Origin: an uncultured bacterium
GTDB taxonomy: Bacteria; Chloroflexota; UBA5177; JANWHV01
Direction of reading: 5' to 3'
DNA: 64,000 bases
NCBI GenBank assembly: GCA_963827235.1
Contig: CAWHAE010000007.1
Span: forward strand, 11,726-75,725
Below the pieces are notes generated by a model. It was not told the origin of the DNA, made no database searches, and was given only the letters and a program-made list of their open reading frames with translations. This document shows positions 35,434 through 64,000 of the stretch, one piece after another. Numbering within the stretch: the first letter of the stretch is position 1; each line of letters starts with the position of its first letter. The position numbers and the translations under genes are program-made.

Positions 35434-35686
35434 GGAAGCGTCCTCGGTTCGCAGGGTCTGAAAATGGTCAGGCAAAATGCGGGCTTGGGCGTAAGGCTTC
35501 CAGGCGCCCCTGTCACAAGTGCGGGGCCTGCCCAGAGGCAATCCGACCTTCGCCAATGACCAACCTACTGGCAGCAACAGCCCTATTTGTAAGAATTTTC
35601 AGACCGTGCCTCGGTCCGTCATCAGAGGAAGTGAGACGTGATGCGGCGCCATAGCTTGAAGCATTTTCCAATTGGCGGTATTATGC

Positions 35687-35700: not shown

Positions 35701-35797
35701 TTCTCCACCGGACGTGCTCGCGTGTGGGTAAGGCGAGCGTGGAGCTATACTGGCAGGTAGTGCGGCGCGCGGATGCTTGGGAAGGGATCGCTCCGAC

Positions 35798-36835
35798 ATG
35801 TCAAGGAATGGGCGGGCCGACAACGGTGTAACGCTCAAGGACGTCGCGGCGCACGCCGGCGTGTCCTTTTCGACTGTCTCGCACGTCATCAACAATCGTT
35901 TCTCGGACGTAGGGCCGAAGACGCGCGAGCGCGTCCATGCCTCGATCCGTGCACTCAATTACCGACCGAACATCGCAGCACGACGCCTGCGCAAGGCCCG
36001 GACCGGCGTACTCGCTCTCACCATTCCGGAAGTCGCCAATCCGTACTTCTCCACGATGATCGGATCGATGTCAGCGCAGCCAAGGCACAGGGCCGGAGCA
36101 TGTTGGTCGATATTACGGGCGGCGAACGCGCGGAAGAGCTCGTGGTGGTCCGAGGCATGAGCCCGCACCTGATCGACGGTGTGATTCTGTATTCGATTGG
36201 GTTGACCGCGGCGGACTGGAGCCCGAGCGCGTGGCCGTGCCGCTCGTGCTCTTCTCGGAGAGGCTGGATCCGGTCTATTGCGACGTGGTGGAGCTCGACC
36301 ACGTGGGAGCCGCCCGTTTGGCCACCGAACACCTGCTCCGCATCGGTCGGCGGCGCATCGGATTCGTCGGGGCCTCAGACATCCGCGCGTCGTGAGCGCA
36401 GGCAGGCGTCTCCAGGGCTATCGGGCCGCCCTGGAGGCGGCTGGGCTGGCGGCGGATCCACGTCTCGTGGCGCGGTCGCCCACCGCATCGTTTTCACGCA
36501 TGGACGGCATTGCCTGCATGCAAAGGTTGCTCGCCGTGACGCCCCTTCCGGACGCGGTGGTCTGCTACAGCGACATCGTGGCACTGGGGGCAATGAAGGC
36601 CATTCGCGACGCCGGGCATAGGATCCCTGACGAGATTGCCGTGGTGGGTTTCGACGATATCGAGGAAGGTCGCTTCTCCACGCCGGCCCTCACGACGGTC
36701 GCGCCGGACAAGGCGGAGTTTGGCAGGCTCCTGGTGAGCCTCCTGATCGCACGCATCGATGGCTCCCGTACGGGCGCCGGAGAACGCTTCGAACCGCCAT
36801 TCCAGCTCGTCGTGCGGCGTAGCACGGCCGGCTAG
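35798..36835 (+). CDS. LacI family transcriptional regulator (multiple frameshifts)
   Basis: TLKDVAAHAGVSFSTVSHVIN HTH, YRPNIAARRL hinge, C-terminal IPDEIAVVGFDD...PALTTV...LVVRRST. Confidence 0.85.
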
Positions 36836-44600: not shown

Positions 44601-47315
44601 CCTGCAACGCTACCACCCGCGCGGGCGTCCGGCACGACTACCGCGACGACGGTTGGGCCGTTGGCCAGCGGCAGTTACTGGCTGCACGTGCGGGCTCGTG
44701 GCCGTGCAGGCACGTGGGGTCCTGCCGCCAACTATCCCTTCATGATCGACACCCTGCCGCTGCGGGTCGGTGCGCCGGATCCTGGTCCGGGCGCCACGGG
44801 CGAGGCCTATGTGACCATTCCCATTGAAGACCCCGGCGCGAGCGGCGTCGATGTCTCCACCATCCGTTTCCAGGTGTTCGGCAAGACATATGGGGCCGGC
44901 AGCAACGTCGTTTCCTATGATCTGACCCACGGCGTGGCCGCGCTCAATGTCGGCTGGATAGACCCGGCGCCGCCCCAATTGTTCCCCGGCGGGAAGGTGC
45001 CTGTGACCTTGCTGGCCGCTGCCGACGCGGCGGGGAACCAGCTGGTCGAGCCCCTGTCCTGGACGTACACCCTGGATATTCCCAACGGGTTGCCCGGTGG
45101 AGCACAACTCTTGACTACCAGGGGCGGCGATGCACCGACCTTCTCACCCGACGGCACGAGGGTCGCTTTCATCTCGAGCCGGTCAGGTGCGGCGCACCTG
45201 TGGACCATCGACGCTGGAGATCTGGCCGAACGGCAGCACACCGCGCGCCAGATCGTGGCCGGGCCGGGTGCCGACGCCGACCCGGCGTGGTCGCCGACCG
45301 GAGACCTCATCGCCTTCGACTCCACCCGCGACGGCAGCCGCCATCTCTACCTTGTCCATCCAGACGGCAGCGGCCTGCAGCGCATCACCAGCGGAGCGTC
45401 GGGCGACATGCAGCCCACCTGGTCTCCGGACGGCAAGCAGATCGCCTTCGTGAACGACGGGAACCTGCTGGTGGTGAACCGCGACGGCACCGACCTGCAC
45501 ACCGTCATCGCCGACGGCGAGCACGCGGTCCACGATCCCACCTGGTCGCCGGATGGCAGGACCATTGCCTACCGTCACAGCCTCTACGTCGACCAGATCT
45601 GGACCGTGCGACTCGACGGCACGCATGACGGCATCTTGACGACGCTGGCGAGCGGCGAGGCACAATCCTCGCCGGCCTGGCTGGCCGACGGCCGCGTGGC
45701 CTACGTCTCGCTGCGTGACAAGGTGTCCGCTCTGTACGCCGTCGAGCCCGACGGTACCGAGCAGAGTGCCCTGGTCGGACAGCCGCCAGCTCTGCTGTTC
45801 ACGCCGGCAGCCTCGCGCGATGGCTCGACCATCGCCTTCGTCTCGACCCGGGCCGGCGGGCACAATATCTACGTCAGCCGCCAGTTCCGCATCGACCCAC
45901 TGGACGTGAGCGCTGCGAGCTTCGACGCGTCTGCCGGCCACACGGTGTCCATCCGCTACGGCCTCACCTCCTCGGCCACTGTCTCCATCGGCATCAGCGA
46001 CAGCGGCGGGCGCGCCGTGCGCACGCTCATCGTGCACAAGATGCTTCCCGCCGGCGTGCGGCAACTGACCTGGGACGGCAGGGACGATCACGGCCGTCTG
46101 CTGGGCGAGGATGTCTACTCCATCCAGGTGACGGCGCAGGCACCGGGCCTGCCTGTACTCAGGCGCGGGTTGGGCGTGAGCATCGACGACGTGAGCCGTC
46201 ATGGCAGCCTGCGCATACACGTACTGCACGCCGGCCAACTAGTGGCGGGCGCTAACCTGACCGTGTCGCGAGCCACTTCGCAGGCGTATGTGCTCGATAC
46301 CACGACGGACAAGACCGGCGCGAGCACAATCAGCCTGAGCCCGGGCACGTACGACGTATTGGCACAGGCCGGCGACGGCCTGCAAGGCAGCGCGCAGGGT
46401 CTGCTCGTGCGCGCGCACACGACGCTGGATCGGACGATCGCGCTGGCTGTGCCGGCGGTTCGGCAGCCGGGCGCACCAGGCGTGGCGACCACGCCGAGCC
46501 CCGTAGCAGCCGCCTCGGCAACTGCGCCGGCGACGCCGGTCGCTGCGGTCACGGTCACTGCGACGCCGTCGACCGGCGGCGCGACGAAGGGAACGCTGGT
46601 GGTGACCGTGCTGACGTCGTCCGGCCAGCCGGCAAGCGGCGCAGGAGTTGACATCTACCAGGGGAACAAGCTGGTCGCTTACTCCGGCACGGACAGCAGC
46701 GGTTCGGCCAGCTTCAGCCTCGCCGCTGGCACCTACAGCGTGCAGGTCGGCCTGGGTAGTGCGAAGGCCACGTTCAGCGGCGTGAAGGTCTCCGCTTGCA
46801 CTACGACCAGGCAGACGGTGCGCCTCGGGGCTGGCACGCTGGTAGTGCATGTGGACCTGGTGCCGGGCCAACCGGCCGCCGGCGCCGAGGTGGACATCTA
46901 CCAGGGGAACAACCTTGTCAGCTACTCTGAGACCGACAGCAGCGGTGCGGTCACCTTCACCCTCAACGCGGGTACATACACGCTGTCTACCAAGTATCGT
47001 CTTGCGACCGGGCCAATGATCTCCGCGACAGTCACGGGTGGTGCATCGACCTCGAGCACGATCGTGCTGAACGCTGGTCAACTGGTGGTGAGCGTGCGCA
47101 CGAAGTCGGGAGCGCCGGCGGTCGGCGCCGAAGTGGACCTCTCTCTGAAGGGCGCCTTGCTCGCATACCCCAGCACCGACAGCACTGGGTCGGTGACGTT
47201 CACCGTGAGCGCGGGGACCTACGCCGTGCAGGCCAGTCAGGGTGGCGTCACGTCGCCCATGGTCTCTGTCACAGCGGTGGCCGGTGCCGTGGTCAGGAGC
47301 ACGATCGTGCTGTGA
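38643..47315 (+). CDS. Exported RHS/YD-repeat protein with DUF6531, RHS core, FlgD-Ig, Ig/FN3-like, TolB-like PD40 propeller and C-terminal prealbumin-like repeats
   Basis: Sec-type N-terminus; VDPATG...LQRTF...MGNGW (DUF6531); many YDAAGRL repeats; core RLYDPALARFLSPDP...NPATQSDPLG; WDGRD FlgD motifs twice; PxWSPDG repeats; C-terminal GA.VDIY...TDSSG...L.AGTY repeats. Confidence 0.9.
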   Translation: MNVSRVRRMALCALAICMAFPAYRSHGASRAVAAAPTPVAAPAGWLSVLAVGTTPPDVLPQAYVASVAAWRTLPLQIAEQAAPAFRDAAGGGGAATALLAQTLLGQATVTPDPRALAQSRLGAVLGPLAQTLGVVSATQAAPSAQELASSLVDPATGVLHVIYQDLSVPARGQPLALQRTFVSGSTTASAMGNGWAFTYGTHLAYDASGNPLIEEATGAVTHFALWQTPSLYLALDAAAWEILSLDRRGGATRLLADGSSEQFDALGRLVRLQDRDGIGLTINYTGANLASVVDAAGRGLRFTESKAGLISTVTDPAGAVIHYGHDGAGNLTSVTTTAGATTRFTYSTPAIDSYDTTRLTGITLPRGSTIRFSYDAGARVSHVSGPGAMSTSITYTGGAEPGAVRTDLVDATGAHTEIDSFTTVPLAGSAQLPMVTRTVDASGKTMTVTSGPSGTAVEDGDGRLTRITGNAAGPASAVQPPETGAARLGYDDATSTLSMLTGVSGNATTLVYDAAGHLAGIRDGTGALTRIEPIAPNTFREVGPDGGAAVVQFDAAGNVIALTDAMGRKTTFNWDADGRLTRISDPAHGSLTYRYGPGGALLARTDALGAVTSYGYDADGNLTSMRDALGNTWRFAYDACDLPVSVIDPLGDTARLSYDDAGRLTMVTDPLGHVTRATYDGAGRVVSVTDPLGHATRYRYGPAGELIAATSPAGRTTRYSYDAAGQPVAVTRADGSSTTLVYDASGRLTGNRAGAGPTTEYRYDGAGRLTQRTVPDESGSSYTYDAAGHLVSAGNGSGTIRDAYDAAGDLTATVDTSGHTVRYTYDAAGRRASMTSATGAVTRYAYDAAGHVTAIDDPLGNSTFRYDALGERIGATLPGGIAVAYGYDKVGRLTDLTYTRGTAVIARFVYGYDRDGNVVLEQSLGDTLHYRYDAASRLTAVQGSARGDDASYAFDADGNLLSSPTGGALRYDAAGRLLTAGSASMAYDAAGRAMTGLSGAVYGYDQSGNLLAAHTGGADVMYSEDALGRTVTRLEAGNITATVFDGSDPVAEFGPVPSAVARTVYGSWIDEPLAFSANGETYTYVVDRLGSVRMVLDGAGKLVATLSYDAYGRLTGKTGSAPTTLGFAGRPYDPATGLIDLRNRLYDPALARFLSPDPLAQPGAATYPYAGDNPATQSDPLGLCAEPPNGPETAWAAASHGLPPLMEEVFGKAGGTFFEGFELWEASKQFNAASEAFGGGEGEGGNGCGVNNADPTFINGAGVAATGPGSAAGHSTLTLTRDASGGSVEALFPVAAAGTVTVDVYDLHGRLTRALAARPASAPVLDITWDGRDVAGREVADGTYYMLETEQPAAVGAQATHALRTIAVTTGASWSVAMPAPPSPPAAAGVAAQIVTPSSGSLLRGVVPIDGVASGPDFDHYQLDYGPGTSPTHWTGILDTSSGTPAVPDQGPVTLARLHTLSGNLGTLDTGLSDYFYYRSSGAQGLSGLYTIRLRVYGRHGEEAQAFTWIVVGRVATYVQDATIASPDGQANLAVPSLALHDIAQVFAVEPTTSTVPVPTYLRKLSSVYALYPSGYVFGSPATLRMHVAAVAPGVQIYAWDAGSATWQPLPSTVARERHGATLTTPVARLGPAPALYAVLAPAATPAAPVIFPPAATTTSAGTLTLAVATRPGLAVQILAGARPSGLRAVAGADGLAVIAGIELRPGQNRFTAVAQDSAGHTSAPSQVVTTTYAPTARKLPGSAALLPDVAGSSAASSGAGSAGPPPPVVDSPTLHAVLASDFQRPQDLWPGRIAPLGATTSVVTDGGYTPLKVTAGRTGDLTTFLPVSSFNLATHPLITFSYKVPAGVYVDLAVHANGTWWVVPLSDNPPSANDHERTYFAPLEGGPGLHFQRDNHWHQLTINLYQLIRNELPTGSIEVDRMAFGDWEPSGWMGVRPAEMNVPGSSFLLAGMAMPAVSRRNAASFSWSEPGTAGITAYSYVLDQQPATLPPARASGTTTATTVGPLASGSYWLHVRARGRAGTWGPAANYPFMIDTLPLRVGAPDPGPGATGEAYVTIPIEDPGASGVDVSTIRFQVFGKTYGAGSNVVSYDLTHGVAALNVGWIDPAPPQLFPGGKVPVTLLAAADAAGNQLVEPLSWTYTLDIPNGLPGGAQLLTTRGGDAPTFSPDGTRVAFISSRSGAAHLWTIDAGDLAERQHTARQIVAGPGADADPAWSPTGDLIAFDSTRDGSRHLYLVHPDGSGLQRITSGASGDMQPTWSPDGKQIAFVNDGNLLVVNRDGTDLHTVIADGEHAVHDPTWSPDGRTIAYRHSLYVDQIWTVRLDGTHDGILTTLASGEAQSSPAWLADGRVAYVSLRDKVSALYAVEPDGTEQSALVGQPPALLFTPAASRDGSTIAFVSTRAGGHNIYVSRQFRIDPLDVSAASFDASAGHTVSIRYGLTSSATVSIGISDSGGRAVRTLIVHKMLPAGVRQLTWDGRDDHGRLLGEDVYSIQVTAQAPGLPVLRRGLGVSIDDVSRHGSLRIHVLHAGQLVAGANLTVSRATSQAYVLDTTTDKTGASTISLSPGTYDVLAQAGDGLQGSAQGLLVRAHTTLDRTIALAVPAVRQPGAPGVATTPSPVAAASATAPATPVAAVTVTATPSTGGATKGTLVVTVLTSSGQPASGAGVDIYQGNKLVAYSGTDSSGSASFSLAAGTYSVQVGLGSAKATFSGVKVSACTTTRQTVRLGAGTLVVHVDLVPGQPAAGAEVDIYQGNNLVSYSETDSSGAVTFTLNAGTYTLSTKYRLATGPMISATVTGGASTSSTIVLNAGQLVVSVRTKSGAPAVGAEVDLSLKGALLAYPSTDSTGSVTFTVSAGTYAVQASQGGVTSPMVSVTAVAGAVVRSTIVL

Positions 47316-48968: not shown

Positions 48969-51485
48969 CTACCTACCGTACCGATGTGCCAGAGCACTGG
49001 CCTCGTCGATCGCAGCTGCGAGCGGCATCGATCGGCCGGACCTCAGGGCATTCTCGACGGTCTCGCCGAGCAGATGCCGCAACCTGGCGTCTATCGCACG
49101 GTAGCTGGCACTCTCCGCCGGTGACACCGGAGCACAGACCGCATCGCGCAGTGCGGCTGCGGCGCCGAACAGCCTGCCACCTGTCTCCGCGGCGCCGAGC
49201 TCAGCTGCTGTCGCCGCGAGTGCCTCCAGGCACTGGGCGACGTTCCTCTTGTTGCCGATCTCGCGCTCGAGCGCTAGGCTCGCGCCAAAGAGTCCCGCTG
49301 CCCGAGCGTGTCCACCCTGCGCCTGGAGCACGAGTCCCAAGTTGTAGGTTCCCATGGCGATGCTGGACCGGTCTCCCAGACCCACTGCGAGCGCTTTGTG
49401 TTCGGTGAGAAGCGCCGTCGCGCGATCAAGGTGCCCGAGCATGCGCTCGGCATCCGCGAGATTGAGCAACGCGATGCACGTGCCGCGGGTGTTGCCCCGC
49501 TGCCGGGTGAGCGCCAGGCCCTCCTCCAGCACCGGCATCGCCTGCTCGGGCCGCCCCAGTTCAATGAGCAGCGCCCCATGGTTCGTGAGCACCGTCGCCA
49601 GCAGCGCATCATCGACGAGAGTGCGAGCCAGCCGCGTTGCCTCCTCGTAGCAGGCCTCTGCCCGAACGTAATCGCCTTGATACTTGAGGGCACTCCCCTG
49701 GTTGACAAGGACCACCGTGGCACCGCGGGCGTCGGCCGCTTGACCGAACAACTCGACCGCCTCCTCATAGGCGGTCAGAGTCAGCGCGAGGTCGCCCTGC
49801 TCATTGGCGAAATTGCCGAGCGCGTTGAGTGCGCGGGCCCGAAGCCCCGCTGGTGCCTGGGGGCTCGCGGCAAGCATGCGCTCAAGCCAGCCGCGGCCTT
49901 CACTCAGGTAGCCGCGGACAAGCCAGAAGCGATACACAGCTACCGCTAGGCGGAGCCCCAGTTCCCCGCGGTCTGGTGATTGCAGACTCCAGTCAAACGC
50001 GGCGCGGATGTTGCCATGCTCGCGCTCAAGCCTGTCGACCCACTCCGCTTGTGCAGCGCCCTGGAGTCCAGGCCAGGCTTGTTCCGCCAGAGCCAGGTAG
50101 TAAGCTGCATGGCGATCGCTGACGCCGCGGGCCTCGCCTGCTGTCGCGAGACACTCCAGGCCATACTCGCGGATGGTGTCCAACATGCCAAAGCGCGCTT
50201 CTGGAGACGGACCCGGCATGCGCACCATGAGGTTCTTGTCGACCAGCGCGAGCAGCCATCCCAGCATGTCATCTTGCAGACCTCCCGTCATCTGGCACAC
50301 GGTCTCGGCAGCTTCCAGGGTGAAGCCACCGGCAAAAACGGCCAGCCGCCGAAACAGTGTCTGCTCTCCCACATGCAACAGGTTGTAGCTCCAGGCAAAC
50401 GCGCTGCGGAGCGTCTGCTGTCGTTCCGGCAGGTCGGAAGCGCCTCTGGTCAACAACTGCAGGCGTTTCTCCAGCCGGGACAACAACGCCTGGGGCGGCA
50501 GGAGCTTGACCCAGACCGCGGTCAGCTCAATGGCGAGGGGCAGTCCGTCTAGGCGGCGGCAGATGGCCGCGATCGCAGCCGCCGTCGCGGGCGTGAGTCT
50601 GGTTTCCGGCTCGATTGCTTGAGCGCGCTGCATGAAGAGCGTCACAGATGCTACCCGGGCCAGCTCATCCATGGAACACTCGCCCCGATCGACCCAGTCC
50701 ATGTCGGGCAGTGCGAGTGGCCGCACAGGGAATTCGTGCTCGCCTCGCACATGCACGGCAACGCGGCTTGTCACCAGCACCTTCAGCCGGGCACAAGCCG
50801 CGGTGAGATCCGCTAGCAGGAGTGCGGCTTTCGCCACGTGCTCGAAGTTGTCGAGTACCAAGAGCACGTGTGTGCCAGCCAAGTCTGCCGCAAGGGCCTC
50901 GCTCAGGGGTTGTCCGCTCTGCTCGCGGATGTTCAGTGCTTGAGCAATGGCAGAGGCGACGAGGGAGGCGTCACGCAGCGGTGCGAGCGAGACGAACACG
51001 GCCCCACCCGCGAAGTGCTTGGAGAGATCGGCGGCGACGGCGATGGCCAGGCTGGTCTTGCCAACGCCGGCAGGTCCGGTGAGGGTGGCCAGACGAACAT
51101 CGTCGCGGCGAAGGAGGTGGGCGACTCCCTGGACGTCGTGCTCGCGGCCGACGAGTGGTGCCGGCAACGCGGGTAGCGTCGAGCCAGCCGGGAGGGCCAG
51201 TGAGCCAGACTGTGAGGCTGCAACTCCTCGGCCCGGACCACGCGTGCGCACTACCGGGGCATCGAGCGCAGTCTGTTCCGCTGCCGAGAGTCCCAGGGCA
51301 CGGGCCAAGCGCGCGACCGTATCGGCATGGGGCACCAGGTTCACGCCGCGCTCCAGGTCGCTGAGGCCACGCACACTCAGCCCGGCTCGCTCGGCTAAGA
51401 CCTCTTGGGACAGTCCGGCGGCCAGGCGATAGCGCCGCAACAACTCCCGGAAGGATCCCCGAGCGCCGGGCTCCGTCTTGTCCAT
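48969..51485 (-). CDS. XRE-HTH / STAND ATPase (NB-ARC-like) / TPR regulator
   Basis: FRELLRRYRLAAGLSQE HTH, GPAGVGKT Walker A, LLVLDNFEH Walker B, LDGLPLAIEL, C-terminal TPRs. Start MDKTEP at 51485. Confidence 0.9.
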   Translation of the reverse strand: MDKTEPGARGSFRELLRRYRLAAGLSQEVLAERAGLSVRGLSDLERGVNLVPHADTVARLARALGLSAAEQTALDAPVVRTRGPGRGVAASQSGSLALPAGSTLPALPAPLVGREHDVQGVAHLLRRDDVRLATLTGPAGVGKTSLAIAVAADLSKHFAGGAVFVSLAPLRDASLVASAIAQALNIREQSGQPLSEALAADLAGTHVLLVLDNFEHVAKAALLLADLTAACARLKVLVTSRVAVHVRGEHEFPVRPLALPDMDWVDRGECSMDELARVASVTLFMQRAQAIEPETRLTPATAAAIAAICRRLDGLPLAIELTAVWVKLLPPQALLSRLEKRLQLLTRGASDLPERQQTLRSAFAWSYNLLHVGEQTLFRRLAVFAGGFTLEAAETVCQMTGGLQDDMLGWLLALVDKNLMVRMPGPSPEARFGMLDTIREYGLECLATAGEARGVSDRHAAYYLALAEQAWPGLQGAAQAEWVDRLEREHGNIRAAFDWSLQSPDRGELGLRLAVAVYRFWLVRGYLSEGRGWLERMLAASPQAPAGLRARALNALGNFANEQGDLALTLTAYEEAVELFGQAADARGATVVLVNQGSALKYQGDYVRAEACYEEATRLARTLVDDALLATVLTNHGALLIELGRPEQAMPVLEEGLALTRQRGNTRGTCIALLNLADAERMLGHLDRATALLTEHKALAVGLGDRSSIAMGTYNLGLVLQAQGGHARAAGLFGASLALEREIGNKRNVAQCLEALAATAAELGAAETGGRLFGAAAALRDAVCAPVSPAESASYRAIDARLRHLLGETVENALRSGRSMPLAAAIDEASALAHRYGR

Positions 51486-51586
51486 GATGAGCCGCCTGCT
51501 GGCAATACTCGGTCCGCTGCTGGCTTCGCCTCGCCGTCTATTATGCCGCACACGGGGTAACGCTGGGTATGGAATTGCAGAATGCT

Positions 51587-51707
51587 TGCAAGCGCAATTG
51601 CGTGGGTCAGAAGTGTGGGTGCTGCCTGTTGCCCGCTCCACCGGCACACTATCGTGGGAGCGGCCGAGCCTGGGGCGTATCGTGTACACGTGGAGAAGAA
51701 GGTCGTG
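51587..51707 (+). repeat. Copy 2 of the ~120-bp promoter/RBS block
   Basis: Same blocks and same overall length as 38082-38202, ending GGAGAAGAAGGTC-GTG; divergent from the intact XRE-STAND gene. Confidence 0.85.
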
Positions 51708-52245
51708 AAGCGGGGCAAGCGTTGTTGCCGCCGCGGCGAGACGGCCCGCCATGGCTGCGGTCGAGCGCTACAAGCACGAGCGTGGCGTTGCCGGTCGATG
51801 GCTGCTTGCTCGCCCAGTAGCACCGAGAGCCACCCTGCAGGAGCATCGCCCGGTACATTCGTTGGTCTCACTCGCTTGCAGATCTTTTCTGTTCTGTGCA
51901 TCACGAGACTTGACGCTCAGTGATTACGGCGCCGACGCGTGGCAAGTGACTGTGCGCCGGCTCCGGCAGCACGGCATTTGAACCGCATGTCTACTCGGTC
52001 AGGCTAAACCGGCACTGCCGCCGAGAATGAGCCCGCCATCGTACTCGGTGTGATCACCACGCCGATGCCCTACATTTGTAGGGGCGGCATTGCCGAGGCT
52101 GAACATCGGCAGGGACCCGCGCGTGGAACAGCTCAACGCTCGCATCGGGTGAGGTTGCAGCACACACGGTTCAGCGCGGATCTCATCCGCCGCGGTGGCG
52201 CGTGCACCATGAGCATCTTGCGCATGCTGAAAGGGAGTGTGCATC

Positions 52246-54647: not shown

Positions 54648-55505
54648 CTATGCCGTCGGCACCTGCCCAGCGTCTGCAAGCCGCCGCTTGGCGTCAGCGT
54701 AGACATCGGCAGGTAGCGGGCCGGACTCAGCCGCCCGCAGGTTGTCCGCCAGGTGCTCGGGTCGCACGGTGCCCGCAATGGTCGTGTGCAGGTCGGGGTG
54801 ACTCAACGTGAAGCGCAGCAAGAACGCTGTGCGGCTCTCACCCGGCGCGCGCAGGTCGTCCAGCCCAGCTCGCTCCCAGACGGCCCAGCGCTCCTCGCTT
54901 CCCAGCCCCTCCTCGCCCGGCGCCCCCCGCGCCACCCCGCCGCGGATGATCGTGCCCGCGCCGGCCCGCGCCGCCGCGCTAATTGCCTCCTCGTGCTCGC
55001 GCTCGAGCGCTGAGTAGGGGATTTGGAAAGCGTCGAAGACGCCCCAGTCGATGAAGTGTGGCAGGTGCGGCAAGGTCGAGGAGCAGCCGATGAAGCGCGC
55101 TTTGCCCGCGGACTTGATGTCTTGCAGCACCGTCACGAGGTCGCCCTGCTCCACCTGCTCGACGGACGGGTTATGCAGCTGCAGCAGGTCGACATAGTCG
55201 GTGCGCAGCCGCCGCAAGCTCTCTTCGATGTTACGGAGCAGGTTCTCCCGCGTCCAGACATGTGGTGTCTCGTCGTGGTCGCCGGCAGGGACCACGGTAC
55301 AGCCGCACTTGGAGGCCAAGAAGTATTCGCCACGGCGGTTCGCGATGAAGCGTCCAATATACTCCTCGCTGCGCCCGTAGTCGTAGGCAGTATCAATAAG
55401 GTTGATGCCGGCATCAAGGACCGCATTGAGGATGCGCTCCGCCTGCGCGTCTCCAACCGGCCGCCCGTTCCAGATGCGGGAGCCACGGATCTCCATGGCG
55501 CCGAA
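54648..55505 (-). CDS. Aldo/keto reductase, apparently missing its N-terminal residues
   Basis: FGAMEIRG, GINLIDTAYDYGRSEE, SLRRLRTDYVDLLQLH. The usual RxLGxTG start is absent, so it may be a pseudogene. Confidence 0.75.
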   Translation of the reverse strand, partial: FGAMEIRGSRIWNGRPVGDAQAERILNAVLDAGINLIDTAYDYGRSEEYIGRFIANRRGEYFLASKCGCTVVPAGDHDETPHVWTRENLLRNIEESLRRLRTDYVDLLQLHNPSVEQVEQGDLVTVLQDIKSAGKARFIGCSSTLPHLPHFIDWGVFDAFQIPYSALEREHEEAISAAARAGAGTIIRGGVARGAPGEEGLGSEERWAVWERAGLDDLRAPGESRTAFLLRFTLSHPDLHTTIAGTVRPEHLADNLRAAESGPLPADVYADAKRRLADAGQVPTA

Positions 55506-56012
55506 GTCCTGCGCGCAAAGACCACAGTAGCGAATCCTGGCGGATTCTGCTTCGTTTCAGCCTCATCGGCGCATCACGGGCAGATCGCCGCGGCATCCGC
55601 TGAGCGCCAAGACGCTTGCCCGGCATGCTTCGGGGGCCGGCGCGTTCGACTTCACAGGGCTCGAGAACACGAGCAGCGCTGCGGATCCGTCGGATCGCTC
55701 ATGCTGCCGATAGGCCTGCGGCAGTCGCCGCCCAGAGCGTCAGTCAGGAAACACAGACATTCTGATTCGCGCGCGTTCGTGCTAGCGACGGTGCGCAGGG
55801 CTTGCGCCGAAATGGCTGCCGCTCGTGCTGCCAGGCAGCCATTGAAGAGGCGCATCCGGCGATGCCATCACGTAACGGCGATGGTCTGCGCCGGCGGTCT
55901 GGGAACGCCAACGCAGGAGTGAGCGTGGCAGGCGCGTAACGGCCGGCGTGCCGCCCACGGGCGTGTCTAGCTCCGGCCAATCGGTCCGCAGCGGGGTCGG
56001 TGGCGCGCCGCT

Positions 56013-56182
56013 CTTGTGCGCGTTTCAGGCACCGTCCTTACACAAGATGCTACGACGACCAGAGGATCGCTCGCGCACGGCCAGGGGACGCTCGCGGAAT
56101 GCGCCGGTCCTATGCTGGGACAGTGCCCCGTCATCGGATCCGCCCACCGTGAGCGGAAATGGGGCCGGGAAGGAAGAAGATA
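56013..56182 (+). promoter_or_regulatory. Conserved operator/promoter/leader element, copy B
   Basis: CTTGTG-N22-CACAAG, CCAGAGGA, GACGCT-N18-TATGCT, GTGCCCCG, CCGCCCAC-N5-GCGGAAA, then RBS; colinear with 61058-60886 on the minus strand. Confidence 0.8.
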
Positions 56183-56827
56183 ATGGCACGAAACCATACC
56201 GTTAGTCCGCACGGAGCCCTGTTGCGCATAGCCGCCATAGCGTTGCCGGCCGCCCTGGTGATGGCGGTGAGCGGCGCGCCTCGCGCTGGGCAAGCAGCGC
56301 CCGATAGATCCCTGCGCATGCGAACGTGTTTCATGTGCCGCTTGCAAAGGCCCACCATCTCGGTCAGCAATCTGGTGAGCGATCCAAACGGAACGGCTGA
56401 CACTGGCTACTTGCAGGTCGATCCGTCCTCGGCCAGCGTCGACGTCGCCGGCGCCCGCTTCACGCCCGGCGACCCGGTGCACGTCGAGCTTATCTCGGAG
56501 TCTCCCGACGCCGGGCCGCTGATGGCCGAGGGCAATACGACGGCCAGCTATGCGCTGACCATCCCGTTGGGCGACGGCCAGTATGTACACATACCTGGCG
56601 GCAGTTTCACGATCGCTCTCACCCCCGATCCGAGCTCGGCAGTGGCGTGCAACTGGCAGCAGATGAATGCATTCATCGTAGCCACCGATACGAGCAGCGG
56701 GGCCCGAGCCTCTACGGCTCCGCTGGCCATCGGAGCCTGGTGGGAAAACAATGAGGTCTTGCCTCGGGCATGCCCGACGGACACGCCCGAGACTACGGCT
56801 ACGGTCACGCCGGGACCTAGCATGTGA
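56183..56827 (+). CDS. Secreted hypothetical protein
   Basis: Signal peptide (LLRIAAIALPAALVMAVSG), beta-rich mature part, Pro/Thr tail; RBS GGAAGGAAG. Confidence 0.7.
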   Translation: MARNHTVSPHGALLRIAAIALPAALVMAVSGAPRAGQAAPDRSLRMRTCFMCRLQRPTISVSNLVSDPNGTADTGYLQVDPSSASVDVAGARFTPGDPVHVELISESPDAGPLMAEGNTTASYALTIPLGDGQYVHIPGGSFTIALTPDPSSAVACNWQQMNAFIVATDTSSGARASTAPLAIGAWWENNEVLPRACPTDTPETTATVTPGPSM

Positions 56828-56926
56828 GCCTGGGGAGCGCCATTGTCGATTCCCGCTACCCGCGGCGGGATTATGCAGCGCTTCGAGCGCAACGAAGCGG
56901 TGACAAACCAAGAAAGGGAGTGCGAG

Positions 56927-59065
56927 ATGACAGGCATGAGACTGGTAAGGATCTTGATAGCCCCGGTTGTGCTATGCGCGGCGATCATGCACGGAGACGG
57001 CGCCGCGCGAGCCGACGATAACAATCCAGGCGGCTTTCCAGCCGCAGCACAGCAAGCGACGGGAATGCCCAGTGACGGGATGTATGGCACCGGCGCGGAC
57101 ATCGATCCGTCGGGCGACGCGCTGCACACGACGATCACCGTGCAGACACACATCTCGTCGGTTGGGGTGCCTCCGCTGACCGGCGACCAACTGCCCGGGA
57201 GAGCCGACCTCTCCGCGTACAATCCGCCTGTGGGGGCGCAAGGTGGGGTTGGCTCTTGCGCTTCGTGGGCGATCGGCTATTACCTGGCCGGCTGGTGGGC
57301 CAGGGCGGGCGGTTACTACCCGGCAGCCGTTGCAGCCGGCCCCGGCGGTTTTGCTCCGATGTACCTCTACAGCCAGATTAGCGCCACCAAGAGCCATGGC
57401 CAGGACAACGGATCTACTCTCGACGATAACCTCTCCCTCCTGCAGCAACAGGGCATTGACGCCGAATCCGATTACACGCAGGGCACGCAGGACTTCACGG
57501 ACCTGCCAACGACCAGCGAGGGCGCCAACGCCTCGCAGTACAAGGTCGCATCGTACCAGACGGTGCTGAAGGATCAACTGGATCACGCCCACATGTCGGT
57601 GGAAGACTATGTTCGTACCAACATTGCCAATGGCAGCCCGGTGGTCATTGCGATGAAGGTCGACCAGCCCTTTATCAACAATGGCAACGCCAGCTACTCC
57701 TACTTCGACAGCATGGGCGGCGCCAATCCGCAGGGACATGCAATGTTCGCCAGCGCCTACGACGAGAATGGGCTCTGGGTCGAGAACTCGTGGGGCACGG
57801 GTTGGGGCCATAATGGCTACGCGGAGCTGAGCTGGAACTTGGTTAACAGCGCGGTGCTCGAGATCGGCACGCTACTTCCTGGTACGGCTCGCAACGCGAT
57901 CCCGGCGCCCGCGGGCGCGCAGGTTGCGCTGGTTGCGCGCAACAGCCAGCAGGAGGATGCGTTCTTCGCCGGCAGCAACGGCGCGCTGTTCACCACCTAC
58001 GAGGTCAACGACGGCGCCTGGAGTGCGCCAATCGCGCTGACAGCAGCTGGTGTGGCCCCGGCGGGTGCACCGGTCGCGGCGTCCGTGCGCAACGATCACC
58101 AGGAGGATGTCTTCTATGTGGGCAACGACGGCAAACTGTATACCCTGTTCGAGGCGAACGACGGACCCTGGAGCGCACCGATAGCCCTCACCACCGCGTT
58201 CAGAGTGCGAACGTCGCTCCCAGGGCGAGCGCTGCAATTCCGCAGTCTAGGCGTCGTCTCGCCCGGAGCCGACATCGCCGTAGCGGTGCGCAACGACCAG
58301 CAGGAGGACGTGTTCTTCATAGGTGGCAACGGCGTGCTTTACACGCTGTTCGAGGCGAACGACGGTGCTTGGAGTGATCCGATCGCACTGACAGCGGCAG
58401 GCGCGGCGCCGGCGAATGCCCCAATCGCAGCGGCCGTGCGTAACGATCATCAGGAAGACGTCTTCTACGCCGGCAGTGACGGTGCGCTCTACACCATCTA
58501 CGAGGTGAGCGGCGGCGCCTGGAGCGCACCACTCCAGATCACTAACATCAATATCGCTCGGCCCTTCACCAATTTCGGGCGGTACTTGCCCGGGCGCGCC
58601 CCAAGCGTGAACGTGGCGCCGGCCGGCGCCCATCTAGCGGCCGTGGTACGTAACGACCATCAAGAGGACGTCTTCTTTGCGGCCAACAACGGCGCTCTGT
58701 ACACGAACTATGAGGTCAACGATGGCGCCTGGAGCACGCCGATAGCGCTTACCGCGGCGAACGTACTCCCGGCCGGTGGCATGGTGGCCGGAGTTGTACG
58801 CAATGACCATCAGGAGGATGTGTTCTTTGTCGGCCAGGATGGTGCGTTGTACACGACCTTTGAGGCTCAAGATGGTCCCTGGAGCGATGCGATTGCGTTG
58901 AGCCAAGCCGGACTAGCTCCTGCCGGCGCCGCACTGGCCGCAGCCAGACGCAACGACCACCAGGAAGACGTGTTCCTCGCCAGTGCCGGCGGTGCGTTGG
59001 CCACCGCGGACGAGGTGCGTGATGGAGGCTGGGTGCTGATCTCGCCACTCCTCGGCTTCAGCTGA
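56927..59065 (+). CDS. Secreted C1A (papain-family) cysteine protease with a 7-repeat lectin-like beta-propeller
   Basis: Signal peptide; QGGVGSCASWA (Gln/Cys), GHAM (His), ENSWG (Asn); seven RN(D/S)xQED(V/A)F...G.L...E..(D/G)G.W repeats. Confidence 0.88.
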   Translation: MTGMRLVRILIAPVVLCAAIMHGDGAARADDNNPGGFPAAAQQATGMPSDGMYGTGADIDPSGDALHTTITVQTHISSVGVPPLTGDQLPGRADLSAYNPPVGAQGGVGSCASWAIGYYLAGWWARAGGYYPAAVAAGPGGFAPMYLYSQISATKSHGQDNGSTLDDNLSLLQQQGIDAESDYTQGTQDFTDLPTTSEGANASQYKVASYQTVLKDQLDHAHMSVEDYVRTNIANGSPVVIAMKVDQPFINNGNASYSYFDSMGGANPQGHAMFASAYDENGLWVENSWGTGWGHNGYAELSWNLVNSAVLEIGTLLPGTARNAIPAPAGAQVALVARNSQQEDAFFAGSNGALFTTYEVNDGAWSAPIALTAAGVAPAGAPVAASVRNDHQEDVFYVGNDGKLYTLFEANDGPWSAPIALTTAFRVRTSLPGRALQFRSLGVVSPGADIAVAVRNDQQEDVFFIGGNGVLYTLFEANDGAWSDPIALTAAGAAPANAPIAAAVRNDHQEDVFYAGSDGALYTIYEVSGGAWSAPLQITNINIARPFTNFGRYLPGRAPSVNVAPAGAHLAAVVRNDHQEDVFFAANNGALYTNYEVNDGAWSTPIALTAANVLPAGGMVAGVVRNDHQEDVFFVGQDGALYTTFEAQDGPWSDAIALSQAGLAPAGAALAAARRNDHQEDVFLASAGGALATADEVRDGGWVLISPLLGFS

Positions 59066-59099
59066 GCGGACTGCTCGTTCAATCCTGCCCATGCAAACC

Positions 59100-59137
59100 T
59101 GGCCCGGCCGAGTGGCGGATTCACTTCGGCCGGGCCA
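59100..59137 (+). terminator. GC-rich hairpin after the protease gene
   Basis: TGGCCCGGCCGAGTG-loop-CACTTCGGCCGGGCCA, 35 bp after the stop codon; no clear U-tract on the plus strand. Confidence 0.6.
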
Positions 59138-59811
59138 AATCGTTCGTGAGCGACGGGCTCTGCCCCAGCGCAGCCGAGGAAACCTGTGGCTGTCCGTGTC
59201 TTCACGAGGCACGGCCATGGCACCGCCGTCAACCTGGGCATCGGGTCGAACACCAACACGTGCACGGCCGCGAGAGGGGCAAGAACAGCAGTTGATTGCC
59301 GGCCACGCAGGTGCGCCGTGCAAGAGGGTGCGGGTCGGCCAGTCAGGTAATCGACCACTCGGCTCGGCCAAGGCGCATTGGCCGTAGGCCCAGAGACTCA
59401 GGGGGCCGGTAGTCGTCCCGCTGTCGGCAACGGCCCGGACGGCGGTGGGGCCGTGGACCACCCCGTTGTCCAGAAAACTGCAAGGCAGCAGCCTGGATCC
59501 CAGAGGTCCAGGACCCGCACGACCTGGTGGTGGCGGGCCAACTGGCTCACTCCTGGGTCCAGGTCACGCCGGCCGTTCTGTCTCGACTGCACGTCGCGGC
59601 GGCTGCCTTCGGTGGCCCGGCGACGCCGATAGCTGTAGACGGCCGACCTCACCTGCCTTGGCGGCCAGGGATAGGCCAGCACCTGCCAGGCGCCATCACC
59701 GATCAGGTAGTGGGCAGCCGAGTGTGATGCTGCGGGACTGCCTTGCCCAGGCACAGCATGGCCGCCGCGACAATCCCGCCGCGGCGGCCGTGCTGTGCCG
59801 GAGAACCGGAC

Positions 59812-60885
59812 TCAGAGGGGAGTGACCGGCTCCGGGCTGCGCAGGAACACGTGTGTGAAGACTTCCCAGCCGTATCGCACCATGTTCGGCCCCTCCCAAT
59901 CGCTAGGAGCCGCCACGCAGGTGCCCAGCGCGATGCAGATGTGGCTGTTGGCGTCAATCTTGTTCTTGCTCACCGGGCTCACGTCGATCATGCCGTCGCC
60001 CGTCTGGTAGCCGTCATGCTTGAGCCAGAGGAGGTCACCGGCCTTGTTGACGGCGTAGATGACGCCATGTGGGCCGGCCATCACCTGTGTGTAGTCTCCG
60101 AAACCGCGGCCCACCACCTTGGGACCTTCCCAGCTGAAGTCGCCCGTCTGGTAGCCATCGTGCTTGTACCACAGCAGCTCGCCAGCCGTGTTGATGGCGT
60201 AGATGACCCCGTCGCTGCCCGCGAATATGTGAGTGAAGTCTCCCCAACCGTAGCCCACCACGTGTGGACCCTCCCAATTGAAGTCGCCCGTGGCGTAGCC
60301 ATCGTGCCGGTACCAGAGTAGCTCGCCGGAGCTGTCCACGGCGTAGATCACTCCGCCGAGTCCGATGCCGTAGTTGACGGTCATGCCGAACACCTGGGTG
60401 AAATCGCCCCACCCGGTCCCCACCTGGTTTGGGCCCTCCCAGTTGCCGACGGTGTGATCGTCGCAGGTGACGAAGCCGTCATGCTTGTACCACATCAGGT
60501 TGCCGTTCTGGTCGATGCCGTAGATGGCCCCGGCGACAGAGAAGACCTTGGCATACGCGTCCCACCCGCCGAGACTCACGGGACCACCAAACTGCCACGC
60601 GCCGGGCGTATACACCGATTGGCCCGACGCGTAGCCGTTGTGCCGGAAGCAATACAGGTTGCCGTCCTGACCGACACCGTAGAGAAAGTACGCGTCCCAT
60701 GGATCGGTGTTGGTCGCGTGGGCGACGCTCTGGCGCACCCCCGCTCCCACCGTTGCCGCAGCCGTGGTGCCGAGGAATACCACGCCGGCCAGCAGCAGTC
60801 GCCCGGCCAGCTCCCGTAGCCGCCCGCGCTTGACCGGCGTCTCAGTTGCCTGTGAGATCGGTTGCCCTGTTGCCGTATCTACCAT
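59812..60885 (-). CDS. Secreted tachylectin-2-like repeat (beta-propeller) protein
   Basis: Signal peptide ending AHA; five repeats of IYA/G...G.L.WY.HDG...WEGP..VG.GW..(F/Y)T.VF; RBS GGAGGAG before ATG 60885. Confidence 0.82.
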   Translation of the reverse strand: MVDTATGQPISQATETPVKRGRLRELAGRLLLAGVVFLGTTAAATVGAGVRQSVAHATNTDPWDAYFLYGVGQDGNLYCFRHNGYASGQSVYTPGAWQFGGPVSLGGWDAYAKVFSVAGAIYGIDQNGNLMWYKHDGFVTCDDHTVGNWEGPNQVGTGWGDFTQVFGMTVNYGIGLGGVIYAVDSSGELLWYRHDGYATGDFNWEGPHVVGYGWGDFTHIFAGSDGVIYAINTAGELLWYKHDGYQTGDFSWEGPKVVGRGFGDYTQVMAGPHGVIYAVNKAGDLLWLKHDGYQTGDGMIDVSPVSKNKIDANSHICIALGTCVAAPSDWEGPNMVRYGWEVFTHVFLRSPEPVTPL

Positions 60886-61058
60886 TGACCCTTCTCCTCC
60901 GCGTGTCCCCTGTTTCCGCCTCGCGTGGGCGGGACTCTGTTCGGAGCACGTCACCAGCCTACGCCGCTGCAGTCTCGTCAGCGTCATCGATGCAGTGCCA
61001 CGGCGTCCTCTGGCGACGGGGTTGCTTGTGTAAGGCCACGGGTCATATCTTGCACAAG
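60886..61058 (-). promoter_or_regulatory. Conserved operator/promoter/leader element, copy A
   Basis: Minus strand: CTTGTG-N22-CACAAG, CCAGAGGA, GACGCT-N18-TAGGCT, GTGCTCCG, CCGCCCAC-N5-GCGGAAA, GGAGGAG. Confidence 0.8.
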
Positions 61059-61317
61059 CGTGGGTAGCAGATATCGATCAGATTCCTATACTGGAGGTAG
61101 TGTCGTCTCAGCGCGCTTGTGTTGAAATTAACCGTCTCCAATTCAGATGAAATTGGCCTCCAGTCCGCGTACTCACACAGTGGGTCCGTGGATGGCGGCC
61201 AACCCGCTGCGGAGACTGCCCCGGGCTAGTGTGGTGGCGCGACAGCAGTTGATCCCGTGAGTTCATCCGCTGAGGAGGCTGCGCCCGCAGCCGCCGTCAT
61301 GCAGGAGCGCAGGTCTT

Positions 61318-64000
61318 ATGTCCCTTCCCACCGCCGCCGGACCAACAATCCGCTATTCGCAGCAGTATCGCCGCTGCGGCAAGCGGGGCTGTCCCACGTG
61401 CACTCCACCCGCTCGTGGCCATGGCCCGTACTGGTACGCCTACTGGTGGGAGGGCGGCCGAGTGCGCTGCCGCTATCTGGGCAAGCAGCCGCCGTCCCTC
61501 GAACCGCCGCCGGCACCGATACGCGCCGCGCCGGCATCCGCGATTGCCCTGCGCGTGCAGACTCTGGGCGGCTTCGCCGTATGGCGGGCCGGGGAGTTGG
61601 TGCCGGCGGGCACATGGGGCCGAAAGAAGGTGGCTGCGCTCTTCAAGTGCCTGCTGAGTGCCCCCGGCCACCGCCTGCATCGAGAGCAGCTCCTGGATTC
61701 TGCTCTTCCCGGATGCCGAACCGGCCGAGGCCGCCAAGCGCCTCCGCGCCACGGTCTACCTGCTGCGAAAGCTGCTCGACATGCCCGAGGCCCCGGCCAG
61801 CCACCTACAGAGCCAGGGCAATCTGCTGGCTCTGCTACCCGCGCCGGCCGGGGAGCCGGACCCTGACTGGCTCGATGCCACCGCCTTCCTGCGCGCCGCC
61901 ACCGCGGCGCTGGCAGGCTCGGACCCGACGGCCTGCCGGACGGCTCTGGCCCTCTACGGAGGCGAGTACCTGCCCGAGGACCGCTACGAGGAGTGGGCCG
62001 AACGTCGCCGTGACGAGCTGCGCGAGCGGCACGTGGCTGTTCTCATGCACCTGGCGGACCTGTTCGCCGCCGCGGGGGAGATAGAGGAGGCACTGGGCTG
62101 CCTCCGCGCGGTGCTCACCCTCGACCGCTGTCACGAAGATGCCGCGCGCCAACTGATGGCCGTGTTAGCGGGTGCTGGCCGGCGCAGCGAGGCCCTGGAA
62201 GTCTACCGCGCCCTGGCAACCGCACTGGAGGAGGAGGTGGGGGAGCCGCCCGCGCGCGAGACACGCGCGCTACGGGCTCGGCTGCTGGCCGAGGCGCCGC
62301 TGGCCGTGCTGCCCGCAACCCCCCACACCAATCTGCCGTCGCCCCTTACCAGTTTCGTGGGCAGAGACTGGGAGCGTACCGAGCTGGCCGGGCTCTTGCG
62401 CCAGGAGGCGGGGGGCTGCCGGCTACTTACCCTGCTCGGGGCCGGCGGCTGCGGGAAGACCCGCCTGGCGGTGGAGACGGCGCGTGGACTCCTCGACGAG
62501 TACCCCGATGGCGTGTTCCTCGTGGAGTTGGGGGCGCTGACAGACCCGGCCCTGCTGGCCCAGACCGTGGCGTCGACCTTCGGCCTGAGCGAGGAGCCGG
62601 GTCGATCCAGCGTCGACCAGCTCACGGCCCATCTGGCGCCACGGCGGCTGCTCCTGGTACTGGACAACTGCGAGCACCTGGTCAAGGGTTGCGCCGGCCT
62701 GGCCACCCGACTGCTGCAGGCAGCGGCGCGGCTGCAGATCCTTGCTACCAGCCAAGCAGCACTCGGCGTACTGGGCGAGCAGCTCTGGCGGGTGCCCTCC
62801 CTGGCACTGCCCGAGCGGGGTGACCTGGAGGCGGCCGACCTGGCGGCCTATGAGGCGGTACAGCTCTTCGTCGAGCGGGCCCAGGCTGCCCGGCCCCGCT
62901 TTGTTCTCGCCGAGCGGAACGCGGCCGCCGTGCTGCACATCTGCCGGCAGCTGGACGGCATCCCGCTCGCCATCGAACTTGCCGCGGCACGGATGGCAGT
63001 GCTCTCCGCGGAGGGGCTGGCATCGCGCCTGGACGACCGCTTCGCGTTGCTCACGAGCGGGAACCAATCCGCCTCGCCCCGGCAGCAGACGCTGCGGGCT
63101 ACCGTGGAGTGGAGCGTGGGACTGCTGAGCAGCGCCGAGCGGCTCCTCCTGCCGCGGCTCTCGGTCTTCGTGGGCGGCTGGACGCTGGAGGCCGCGGAGG
63201 CGGTGTGTGCGGGGCCGGGGCTGCTCAAGCACCACGTGCTGGAGCAGCTGGACGGGTTAGTGGCCAAGTCGCTGGTGCAGGTGGACGAGCCAAAAGAGGA
63301 GCAGCGCTACCGGCTGCTGGAGTCGGTACGCGCCTTCGCGCAAGAGCTGGGCGAGGCCGCAGGTGAGCTGGATACCGCACGGGAGCGGCACTTTGCCTGG
63401 GCCATAGAGCTGGCAGAGGCGACTGCGCCGAAGCTGCAGGGGCAGGAGCAGGCAAAGTGGCTGGCAATCCTGGAAACCGAGCACGGTAACCTTCGCGCCG
63501 CATACAGCCACCCACGCGCTTCAGGCGGCGAGCACCCGGCGCAGCTCCGGTTGGTGGCCGCCTTGTGGCCCTTCTGGGAAATGCGCGGCCACCTGAGCGA
63601 GGGCAGAAGATTGGCCGAGGGTGCGCTTCAGCGCGCGAGCCGGCCGTCGTCACTGCGCGCGGAAACGTTGCTTGCGGCCGGCGTGTTGGCAACCCGCCAG
63701 GGCGACTATGCGGTGGCCGAGACACGTCTGAACGAGAGCCTTGCGGTCTTTGAAGGGCTTGGCGAGAAGTTGGGCGCGGCGCGCGCGCGAATGAGCCTGG
63801 GTCATCTCGGTGTCTTCAAGGGAGAAGATACGGCGTCGACGTTGGTCGAGCAGGCTCTTGCCGTCTTCCGTGCCCACGGAGATCACTTCAATGCCGCCAA
63901 GGCGCTGAGCAGCCTTGGTGTGGCCGCCATGTATCGAGGAGACTACCGGCAAGCCGCTGCGTTGCTTCGCGAGTGCATGGGCTTACAATGTGACTTTGCT
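61318..64000 (+). CDS. DUF6788 / SARP-BTAD / STAND ATPase / TPR regulator (frameshift near 61699; 3'-partial)
   Basis: YRRCGKRGCPTC...HGPYWY (DUF6788-like), LRVQTLGGF wHTH; after a one-base shift: ALYGGEYLPEDRYEEW (BTAD), NLPSPLTSFVGR, GAGGCGKT, LVLDNCEH, LDGIPLAIEL, TPRs. Confidence 0.85.

Follow-up and report, generated by a model that had tools for sequence, protein, structure and literature searches.

A fixed promoter layout before exported lectin, propeller and protease genes of an uncultured Chloroflexota bacterium and its likely AfsR-like regulator

The locus and its two control regions

The stretch of DNA analysed here (the window, 64,000 nucleotides) belongs to an uncultured Chloroflexota bacterium and corresponds to G000:C7:11726-75725, at the end of a contig of the source assembly G000 (8.0 Mb, 65% G+C, 21 contigs). 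Its last part holds two convergent transcription units with unrelated products and, divergent from the second, the gene of a large regulator of the AfsR type (Table 1). The subject of this work is the pair of control regions, W1 and W2, that precede the two units. A sequence-only reading had described these regions as colinear and had proposed a regulon, and the series of blocks and spacers that it listed is present in full in both. Compared across loci and genomes, the shared control region beside the AfsR-like regulator most likely marks that regulator's own target genes.

The first unit (plus strand) comprises two genes, which likely form one operon. Pfam places no family in the first protein, a peptidase family in the second and Tachylectin in the product of the second unit (minus strand), in agreement with the earlier statement that the coding sequences are unrelated. 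The Peptidase_C1 match reaches 35 bits (cut-off 20.7), papain chains are matched at E 2.5e-5, and the stretches GSCASWA, GHAMFA and ENSWG correspond by eye to the context of the catalytic Cys, His and Asn of a predicted peptidase activity. Its C-terminal repeats match the solved BP39L lectin propeller 6gxr_A in four stretches (E 4.8e-41), and the gene has a paralog on contig C12 of G000 (C12, C9 and similar labels denote other contigs of this assembly). The Tachylectin match reaches 123.5 bits (cut-off 29.8), with predicted sugar binding; the exported lectin and propeller products claimed earlier are thereby borne out, the propeller being of the BP39L type where the earlier reading spoke of fucose lectins. 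Both first genes of the units begin at an ATG (56183 and 60885) that is not the start of the longest open reading frame (ORF), which corrects the ORF list. Between the convergent units lie about 600 bp (59140-59750) with no Pfam-matching ORF and with one hairpin on each side (about 59100-59135 and 59750-59799); the miRNA-like Rfam rows at the latter are spurious.

Table 1. Positions of the genes and control elements in the window
Feature	Position	Strand	Description
W1 upstream inverted repeat	56013..56046	+	distal arm CTTGTGC 56013-56019, N16, proximal arm CCTTACACAAG 56036-56046; about -110 to -77 from predicted start
W1 CCAGAGGA box	56059..56066	+	N12 after the repeat, exactly 44 nt before -10
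W1 candidate SARP-type heptamers GGGACGC and GGAATGC	56085..56102	+	11 bp apart, 5/7 identical; 3' copy ends 8 bp before -10
W1 -10 hexamer TATGCT	56111..56116	+	start predicted near 56123; no usable -35
W1 leader	56123..56182	+	GTGCCCCG 56123-56130, N9, CCGCCCAC 56140-56147, N5, GCGGAAA 56153-56159, purine-rich ribosome-binding site, ATG 56183
214-amino-acid protein gene	56183..56827	+	N-terminal hydrophobic signal-like segment (by eye); 0 Pfam families
Exported papain-type peptidase and BP39L-type lectin beta-propeller gene	56843..59065	+	Peptidase_C1; 6gxr_A
Terminator-like hairpin	59750..59799		20-nt arms, 95% complementary; just past the tachylectin stop, between the convergent units
Tachylectin-family gene	59812..60885	-	357 amino acids; PF14517 E 1.5e-35; N-terminal hydrophobic segment
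W2 promoter and leader	60886..61058	-	repeat 61058-61025; CCAGAGGA 61013-61006; heptamers 60987-60981 and 60976-60970; -10 TAGGCT 60961-60956; start near 60949
Weaker repeat CTTGTG-N22-CAGATG	61116..61149	+	ahead of the regulator gene; without the box-N44--10 geometry (by eye)
Regulator gene	61318..64000	+	Zn module (DUF6788-like), Pro/Ala linker, winged helix-turn-helix, BTAD, NB-ARC, TPR; runs off the contig end

Downstream of its CCAGAGGA box, W1 continues with N20, GACGCT and N18 to the -10 hexamer, which is directly followed by GG and, after N4, by GTGCCCCG. W2 runs through the same series of blocks from 61058 to the ATG at 60885, with a first spacer of N11 (N12 in W1), TAGGCT as the -10 hexamer and GTGCTCCG as the next block. 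The weaker repeat reported earlier ahead of the regulator gene is also present (Table 1).

In a pairwise alignment of W1 and W2, 50 of 94 positions are identical. This identity amounts to 29/36 at the columns that are invariant in three promoters from other genomes (G2a, G2b and M167f, see below), compared with 21/58 elsewhere (Fisher p = 2.4e-5). Because the identity concentrates at columns conserved in other genomes, the likeness of the two regions would reflect selection and not shared descent alone. The leader blocks CCGCCCAC and GCGGAAA are common only to W1, W2 and M167r, the leader of a tachylectin orthologue; for this reason W1 was probably copied from a tachylectin-type cassette and afterwards kept under constraint.

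The genome scan proposed with the sequence-only reading came out in favour of the element, with 5 exact CTTGTG-N20-24-CACAAG repeats in the 8.0 Mb of G000 and 0 in the backwards control. The proximal arm of W1, the 11-mer CCTTACACAAG, is identical to arms at the paralogous C12 locus and occurs 7 times in G000, 6 of them inside such inverted repeats. Two sites were set aside as chance: a solo half-site at G000:C9:779018, which has no partner arm (about 1.7 such 11-mers are expected by our own estimate), and the exact repeat at C12:1501324, where the extended arms are absent.

Promoter layout across loci and its linkage to the regulator gene

Ten promoters were anchored, namely W1, W2, C12pep and C12b in G000, G2a and G2b in the congener G002, and M155, M159, M167f and M167r on metagenome contigs (L155, L159 and L167). 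The inverted repeat takes the form CTTGTG(Y)A(R)GG-N9-13-CCYTRCACAAG, with the CACAAG-type half-sites 22 bp apart from centre to centre, and is followed by N11/12, CCAGAG(G/A)A, N44, TAnG(C/A)T, N6 and GTGCCC. In 8 of the 10 promoters the box is placed 11-12 nt past the repeat and exactly 44 nt before TAnnnT; the remaining two, C12pep and C12b, are degenerate. With a start 7 nt past the -10 hexamer, the box would span about -64 to -57 and the repeat about -110 to -77, the repeat lying 64 nt upstream of the -10. The ten promoters stand before seven different exported-protein genes, lectin, propeller and protease types among them.

A scan of 55800-61400 with the sigma-70 consensus returned 0 promoters, and no -35 consensus was seen. 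Promoters of the window clade carry two weak candidate heptamers, G(G/C)(A/C)ACGC and G(T/G)GA(T/C)GC, placed 11 bp apart, the second ending 8 bp before the -10. According to PMC10936776, SARP targets as a rule carry direct repeats with a period of 11 or 22 bp, the 3' copy being placed 8 bp from the -10. The layout as a whole is consistent with an activator-type promoter of fixed geometry. Elsewhere in the window, at 35514-35595 (plus strand), a near-match CACAAG-N12-CCAGAGGC-N44-TATTTG is found about 180 nt upstream of an ORF of 282 amino acids (35773-36621) with no Pfam match; its -10-like hexamer ends in G, not T.

The C12 locus has a more perfect repeat, CTTGTGTAAGG-N12-CCTTACACAAG, between a paralogous regulator gene and the paralogous peptidase-propeller gene, and another repeat is found 2.2 kb past the stop codon of that regulator. 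Downstream of this second palindrome an open frame (L001:10901-11290, equal to G000:C12:309901-310290) resembles by eye the tail of a TPR regulator and may be the remnant of a further regulator copy. On contig C44 of G002 (JAQBPC010000447.1) two repeats precede the orthologous regulator gene, and the gene behind each repeat encodes an anchored or exported protein that belongs to no known family. On L167 a single palindrome has a box-N44--10 module on both sides; one side leads to the Tachylectin gene, so that the orthologue of the window tachylectin sits behind the same promoter type; on the other side come an NHL-propeller gene and, behind it, the regulator orthologue (61% identical). This propeller gene (L167:4179-4977) seems split in two frames by an apparent break near 4340-4380, the frame with the signal peptide stopping near 4384 and the NHL frame opening at 4327.

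The distance from the regulator gene to the repeat is 260 bp for W2, 93 bp for the C12 repeat, 294 bp and 1.2 kb for the two repeats of G002 C44, and 1.1 kb in L167. The regulator is the only neighbour shared by all four loci long enough to be judged (window, C12, G002 and L167), and the grammar of the clade always occurs within about 5 kb of a gene of the regulator clade. The tie between regulator and cis element proposed by the sequence-only reading therefore stands insofar as the element travels with orthologues and paralogues at 4/4 informative loci; as a tie to this regulator in particular it is loosened, the CTTGTG/CACAAG half-sites and CCAGAGGA being shared by many paralog clades.

A degenerate form of the palindrome matched 13 contigs among 185,579 species genomes, of which only that of the congener is related, and 17 metagenome loci, with L155, L159 and L167 as the 3 related ones. 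In the congeners G001, G003 and G004 (87-92% complete) the inverted repeat was not found, and the 11-mer half-site occurs there unpaired and at or below the control count. In G000 the composite grammar has 7 matches, compared with 2 for the reversed control, and 4 of the 7 lie 161 bp to 5.3 kb from a regulator of the family. Two remote matches precede genes of secreted BNR/YCF48-like propellers of 329 and 842 amino acids, at G000:C17:38211 (minus strand, L003) and G000:C12:347830 (minus strand, L190), with no family regulator nearby; the -35-proximal repeats of these two promoters are of the TGCAAGA type, like those of the paralog at C9:1032542. The match at C12:816162 lies over coding ORFs and, with a control count of 2, is probably due to chance.

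The regulator and its paralogs

The regulator had been classed as a SARP-STAND-TPR protein, and the domain searches confirmed this. BTAD (PF03704) is matched at E 2.4e-18 in the window copy, 6.1e-14 in the C12 paralog and 1.5e-19 in the L167 orthologue; NB-ARC reaches 30.3 bits (cut-off 23.5) in the G002 orthologue, and NB-ARC/AAA and TPR matches are also present in the window copy. The paralog at G000:C12:304245-307700 is intact (1151 amino acids, 60% identical to the window regulator, with an identical operator) and shows NB-ARC/AAA and TPR_12 (E 7.4e-54). It aligns colinearly with the AfsR chains 8k60_I/8jke_I over residues 78-1060 (E 5.9e-18); the alignment starts at residue 78, so that the protein exceeds the AfsR plan by 77 residues at its N-terminus. 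Trans_reg_C matches lie below the Pfam cut-off (E 5.5e-4 in the G002 orthologue and 2.1e-3 in L167), and an AlphaFold2 model of the winged helix-turn-helix (pLDDT 81.8) matches CovR, KdpE and AfsR 8hvr_I at prob 0.95-1.0 (0.95 for AfsR).

The additional N-terminal part is a module of about 50 residues with a CCCH set of predicted zinc ligands. Residues C13, C18, C21 and H28 and a GHGPY...A.W core are invariant in 21 family members, and the Pro/Ala linker that follows is very variable in length. The AlphaFold model (pLDDT 90.6) predicts a three-stranded sheet with a zinc knuckle. The label DUF6788 (PF20586) given to this part earlier holds for the L167 orthologue (28.0 bits, cut-off 27.2) and falls short of the cut-off in the window copy (21.5) and in the C12 paralog and the G002 orthologue (25.4 each); the match covers profile positions 27-70 of 103 only. 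Each of the 36 homologues that the N-terminal 75 residues retrieved from the database has a precomputed PF20586 match together with BTAD, under the names 'predicted ATPase/DNA-binding SARP family transcriptional activator' or 'DUF6788 family protein'.

About ten paralogs of the regulator are found in G000, and many more in the genus. In 17 family promoters, which were located by their box, TAnnnT follows 42-45 nt after the box in 17/17, and a CACAAG-type half-site lies at most 14 nt upstream of the box in 16/17 (alignment read by eye). The upstream elements occur in at least 6 paralog clades that have different -35-proximal repeats. In the 28 nt that precede the -10 of the 17 promoters, direct repeats score higher at a lag of 11 than at the other lags (mean 3.94 vs 2.47-3.35). 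The repeat is perfect (7/7) in L173 (TGCAAGA twice) and in L188 (CTGAAACGA twice, the second copy ending 8 bp from the -10), and the orthologous paralogs L172 and L181 share a repeat of their own, CTTAG(G/A/C)GAAGA, 21 bp apart. The recognition-helix region of the winged helix-turn-helix varies among clades and the zinc module hardly does; because of this the invariant DNA elements would pair with the invariant module and the variable repeats with the variable helix, a pairing that is a correlation only. Each regulator probably owes its specificity to the heptamers adjacent to the -35 position.

A small ORF of about 50-75 codons with the motif YVLRFW...W.GR...F..L..L and no annotation is divergent from the regulator gene at 9 of 26 family loci, and further copies occur elsewhere in G000; ORFs of this kind lie at L137:8083-8307, L140:5219-5374 on the minus strand, and G000 C9:1032976, C20:61985, C16:946881, C10:1059855, C12:293541, C18:28757 and C20:176093. 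Its promoters have the box at N42-45 from TAnnnT in 9/9 cases, of varying quality, when up to 4 mismatches are allowed in locating it; exact CCAGAG is present in 4/9, and most have CACAAG-type half-sites just upstream in direct, not inverted, order.

No mention of DUF6788 was found in the literature searched, outside of which most subscription journals lie. Among the matches listed, searches on SARP and Chloroflexi contained no mention of Chloroflexi, that for 'SARP family' no mention of the term, and that on tachylectin and STAND none of tachylectin. PADLOC, run on 7 proteins, gave only a generic 'TPR' match for the regulator and 0 families for the six targets; the role in defence or antagonism suggested earlier has no support beyond the nature of the products.

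Two other large genes lie in the window. An ORF of 2890 amino acids (38643-47315, plus strand), 9 kb upstream of the promoter pair, encodes a giant RHS/YD-shell protein with 14 RHS repeats, DUF6531, PD40 propeller repeats, FlgD-Ig and an MG3-like domain. A second STAND regulator of another type (HTH_XRE, NB-ARC and TPR; 927 amino acids) is encoded at 48969-51752 on the minus strand.

Interpretation and comparison with known systems

W1 and W2 are in our judgement likely to be activator-dependent promoters that form the cluster-situated regulon of an AfsR-like large SARP with an extra N-terminal zinc module. The TPR-NOD part of the regulator, acting as a STAND switch, would sense a signal, and the switched-on protein would bind the promoters and recruit RNA polymerase to a core without a -35, as AfsR does. 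A pair of winged helix-turn-helix domains would probably sit on the two weak heptamers, 11 bp apart and ending 8 bp before the -10, which is the classical SARP position, while the upstream CACAAG half-sites and CCAGAG box would probably be read by the family-invariant zinc module or by further protomers of an oligomer. A palindromic upstream site of this kind could serve two divergent promoters, as the arrangement in L167 suggests. The window copy of the regulator looks broken, and the intact C12 paralog, with its identical operator, may be the working regulator that drives both loci. As a lineage-restricted variant of the large SARPs the system is real; the assignment of its domains to the DNA elements is proposed from sequence comparison.

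Several observations weigh against this reading. The frame of the window regulator breaks near 61697-61701, inside the winged helix-turn-helix, with ...LHREQLLD in one frame and LLFPDAEPAEA... in the next (codon-position G+C and translation indicate one gene), and its 3' end is missing, so that this copy may have lost its function; alternatively, the break may stem from an error of assembly. The sequencing runs listed were two metagenome runs, which contain 0.06-0.07 of the sampled words, and no RNA run was among them. In these two runs no contig of this organism spans the break, and pieces at 61660-61697 differ by 5 letters and continue unlike the window. Two 'joints' at the break came from foreign contigs and were given no weight, and for the missing 3' end 0/36 tblastn matches lay at a contig edge. 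The CACAAG half-sites and the CCAGAG box are common to paralog clades, recurring in the 17 family promoters, and the promoters of the regulator genes themselves do not follow the grammar (by eye). The heptamers of the clade near the -35 position match in 5/7 positions at best, and in the 8 clade promoters alone a lag of 11 is not distinct (0.38 vs 0.40 at lag 16). Fold searches with the zinc module alone gave E > 1 in Foldseek and a best VIA Z of 3.1, with no relative that would show DNA binding. Since G2b, M155 and M159 are orthologous to one another and W2 to M167r, the anchored promoters amount to about seven independent cases.

A bolder form of the proposal can be put forward only tentatively. 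The CCCH zinc module might be a new DNA-binding domain that reads CACAAG/CCAGAG, with the winged helix-turn-helix reading the clade heptamers at -35, and the roughly ten paralogs per genome might form a repertoire of intracellular sensors, each releasing a separate set of secreted proteins (lectins, propellers or proteases) or a small protein from promoters of one common grammar. If true, the DNA address of such an NLR-like switch would have two parts.

The half-sites and the box could instead be read by a separate factor common to the family, be it another transcription factor, the YVLRFW small protein or the C-terminal domain of the RNA polymerase alpha subunit (alpha-CTD), the STAND-SARP providing the -35-proximal contact or nothing. 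The occurrence of the elements in at least six clades with different -35-proximal repeats fits this alternative, as do the small protein encoded divergently at part of the family loci and the centre of the box near -60, where class I activators or alpha-CTD act (PMC10936776, in part). A general UP-like element would hardly give so few composite matches in the genome, more than half of which lie next to a family regulator; no small ORF of the YVLRFW family was detected at E <= 1e-3 in the window, C12, G002 and L167 loci; and the zinc module of the regulator is the sole invariant stretch of protein found together with the invariant DNA elements. We consider a separate factor rather unlikely.

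The likeness of W1 and W2 as the mere trace of a copied promoter cassette, with no common regulation today, is improbable. Locus duplication is evident from the paralogous peptidase and regulator genes, and the leader blocks confined to W1, W2 and M167r point to copying; the identity nevertheless falls mainly on columns that other genomes also conserve, the spacers have diverged in sequence but not in length, and the same grammar stands before seven unrelated genes in several genomes. Repression, with the palindrome as an operator that blocks a constitutive promoter, is very improbable. Palindromic sites are typical of repressors, and at C12 a good TAGAAT -10 of the regulator gene follows 47 nt after the palindrome (by eye); against this, the repeat before the target genes is outside the polymerase footprint, the core promoters have no -35, and all characterised SARPs are described as activators in the relevant part of PMC10936776. 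A cis-acting leader RNA (riboswitch or protein-binding hairpin) as the shared control element was rejected as scarcely credible: GTGCYCCG, CCGCCCAC and GCGGAAA are conserved in three leaders and a 5-bp CCGCC/GGCGG stem is possible, yet these blocks are absent from the G2a, G2b and M167f leaders, the leaders fold no better than shuffles (z = -0.04 for W1, +1.18 and +0.67), 0/13 predicted pairs covary in the alifold model, and an Rfam scan of 55500-61700 at E <= 10 gave 12 rows, none at the gathering score and none in either leader.

The activator reading of W1 and W2 provides a promoter grammar at the level of sequence (predicted starts, boxes, exact spacings and candidate targets) for an unstudied and expanded branch in the Chloroflexota. 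In Streptomyces, work on large SARPs has dealt with their part in antibiotic regulation; the targets of the present branch seem to be exported sugar-binding propellers and a protease, not secondary metabolism. If true, this would be the first function for a DUF6788-like module, it would show how a STAND switch is wired to promoters via distant upstream sites, and the regulons of many paralogs would become predictable from sequence alone.

The closest known system is AfsR of Streptomyces coelicolor, with which the Chloroflexota regulator shares the order winged helix-turn-helix, BTAD, NB-ARC and TPR, the C12 paralog aligning end to end. The targets resemble the afsS promoter in their poor -35 and long spacer, and the family has direct repeats of 11 bp with about 8 bp between the end of the 3' copy and the -10, the rule given in PMC10936776, from which the pairing of AfsR with afsS is likewise taken in part; many of the Chloroflexota paralogs face a small ORF in the same manner. 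Unlike AfsR, the Chloroflexota regulator adds an N-terminal CCCH zinc module of 50 residues on a flexible linker. The afs box spans -40 to -19, whereas the extra elements of the Chloroflexota promoters (CACAAG half-sites in inverted or direct order and the CCAGAG box) reach to about -110. The host phylum, the presence of about ten paralogs per genome and the targets, which are exported lectin, propeller and protease proteins and not antibiotic pathways, also differ.

ActII-ORF4, RedD and DnrI are examples of small cluster-situated SARPs. These resemble the present system in the location of the regulator gene beside its targets and in heptamer repeats at 11- or 22-bp periodicity (PMC10936776, in part), but they lack the NOD-TPR sensor and the zinc module and act on biosynthetic clusters. 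The STAND activators MalT and GutR share with the Chloroflexota regulator a signal-gated NTPase switch joined to a DNA-binding domain and a TPR or SUPR sensor; TPR_MalT is among the Pfam matches of the C12 paralog and the G002 orthologue. In MalT and GutR the DNA-binding domain is C-terminal and of the LuxR type, whereas the Chloroflexota regulator has an N-terminal OmpR-type winged helix-turn-helix with BTAD.

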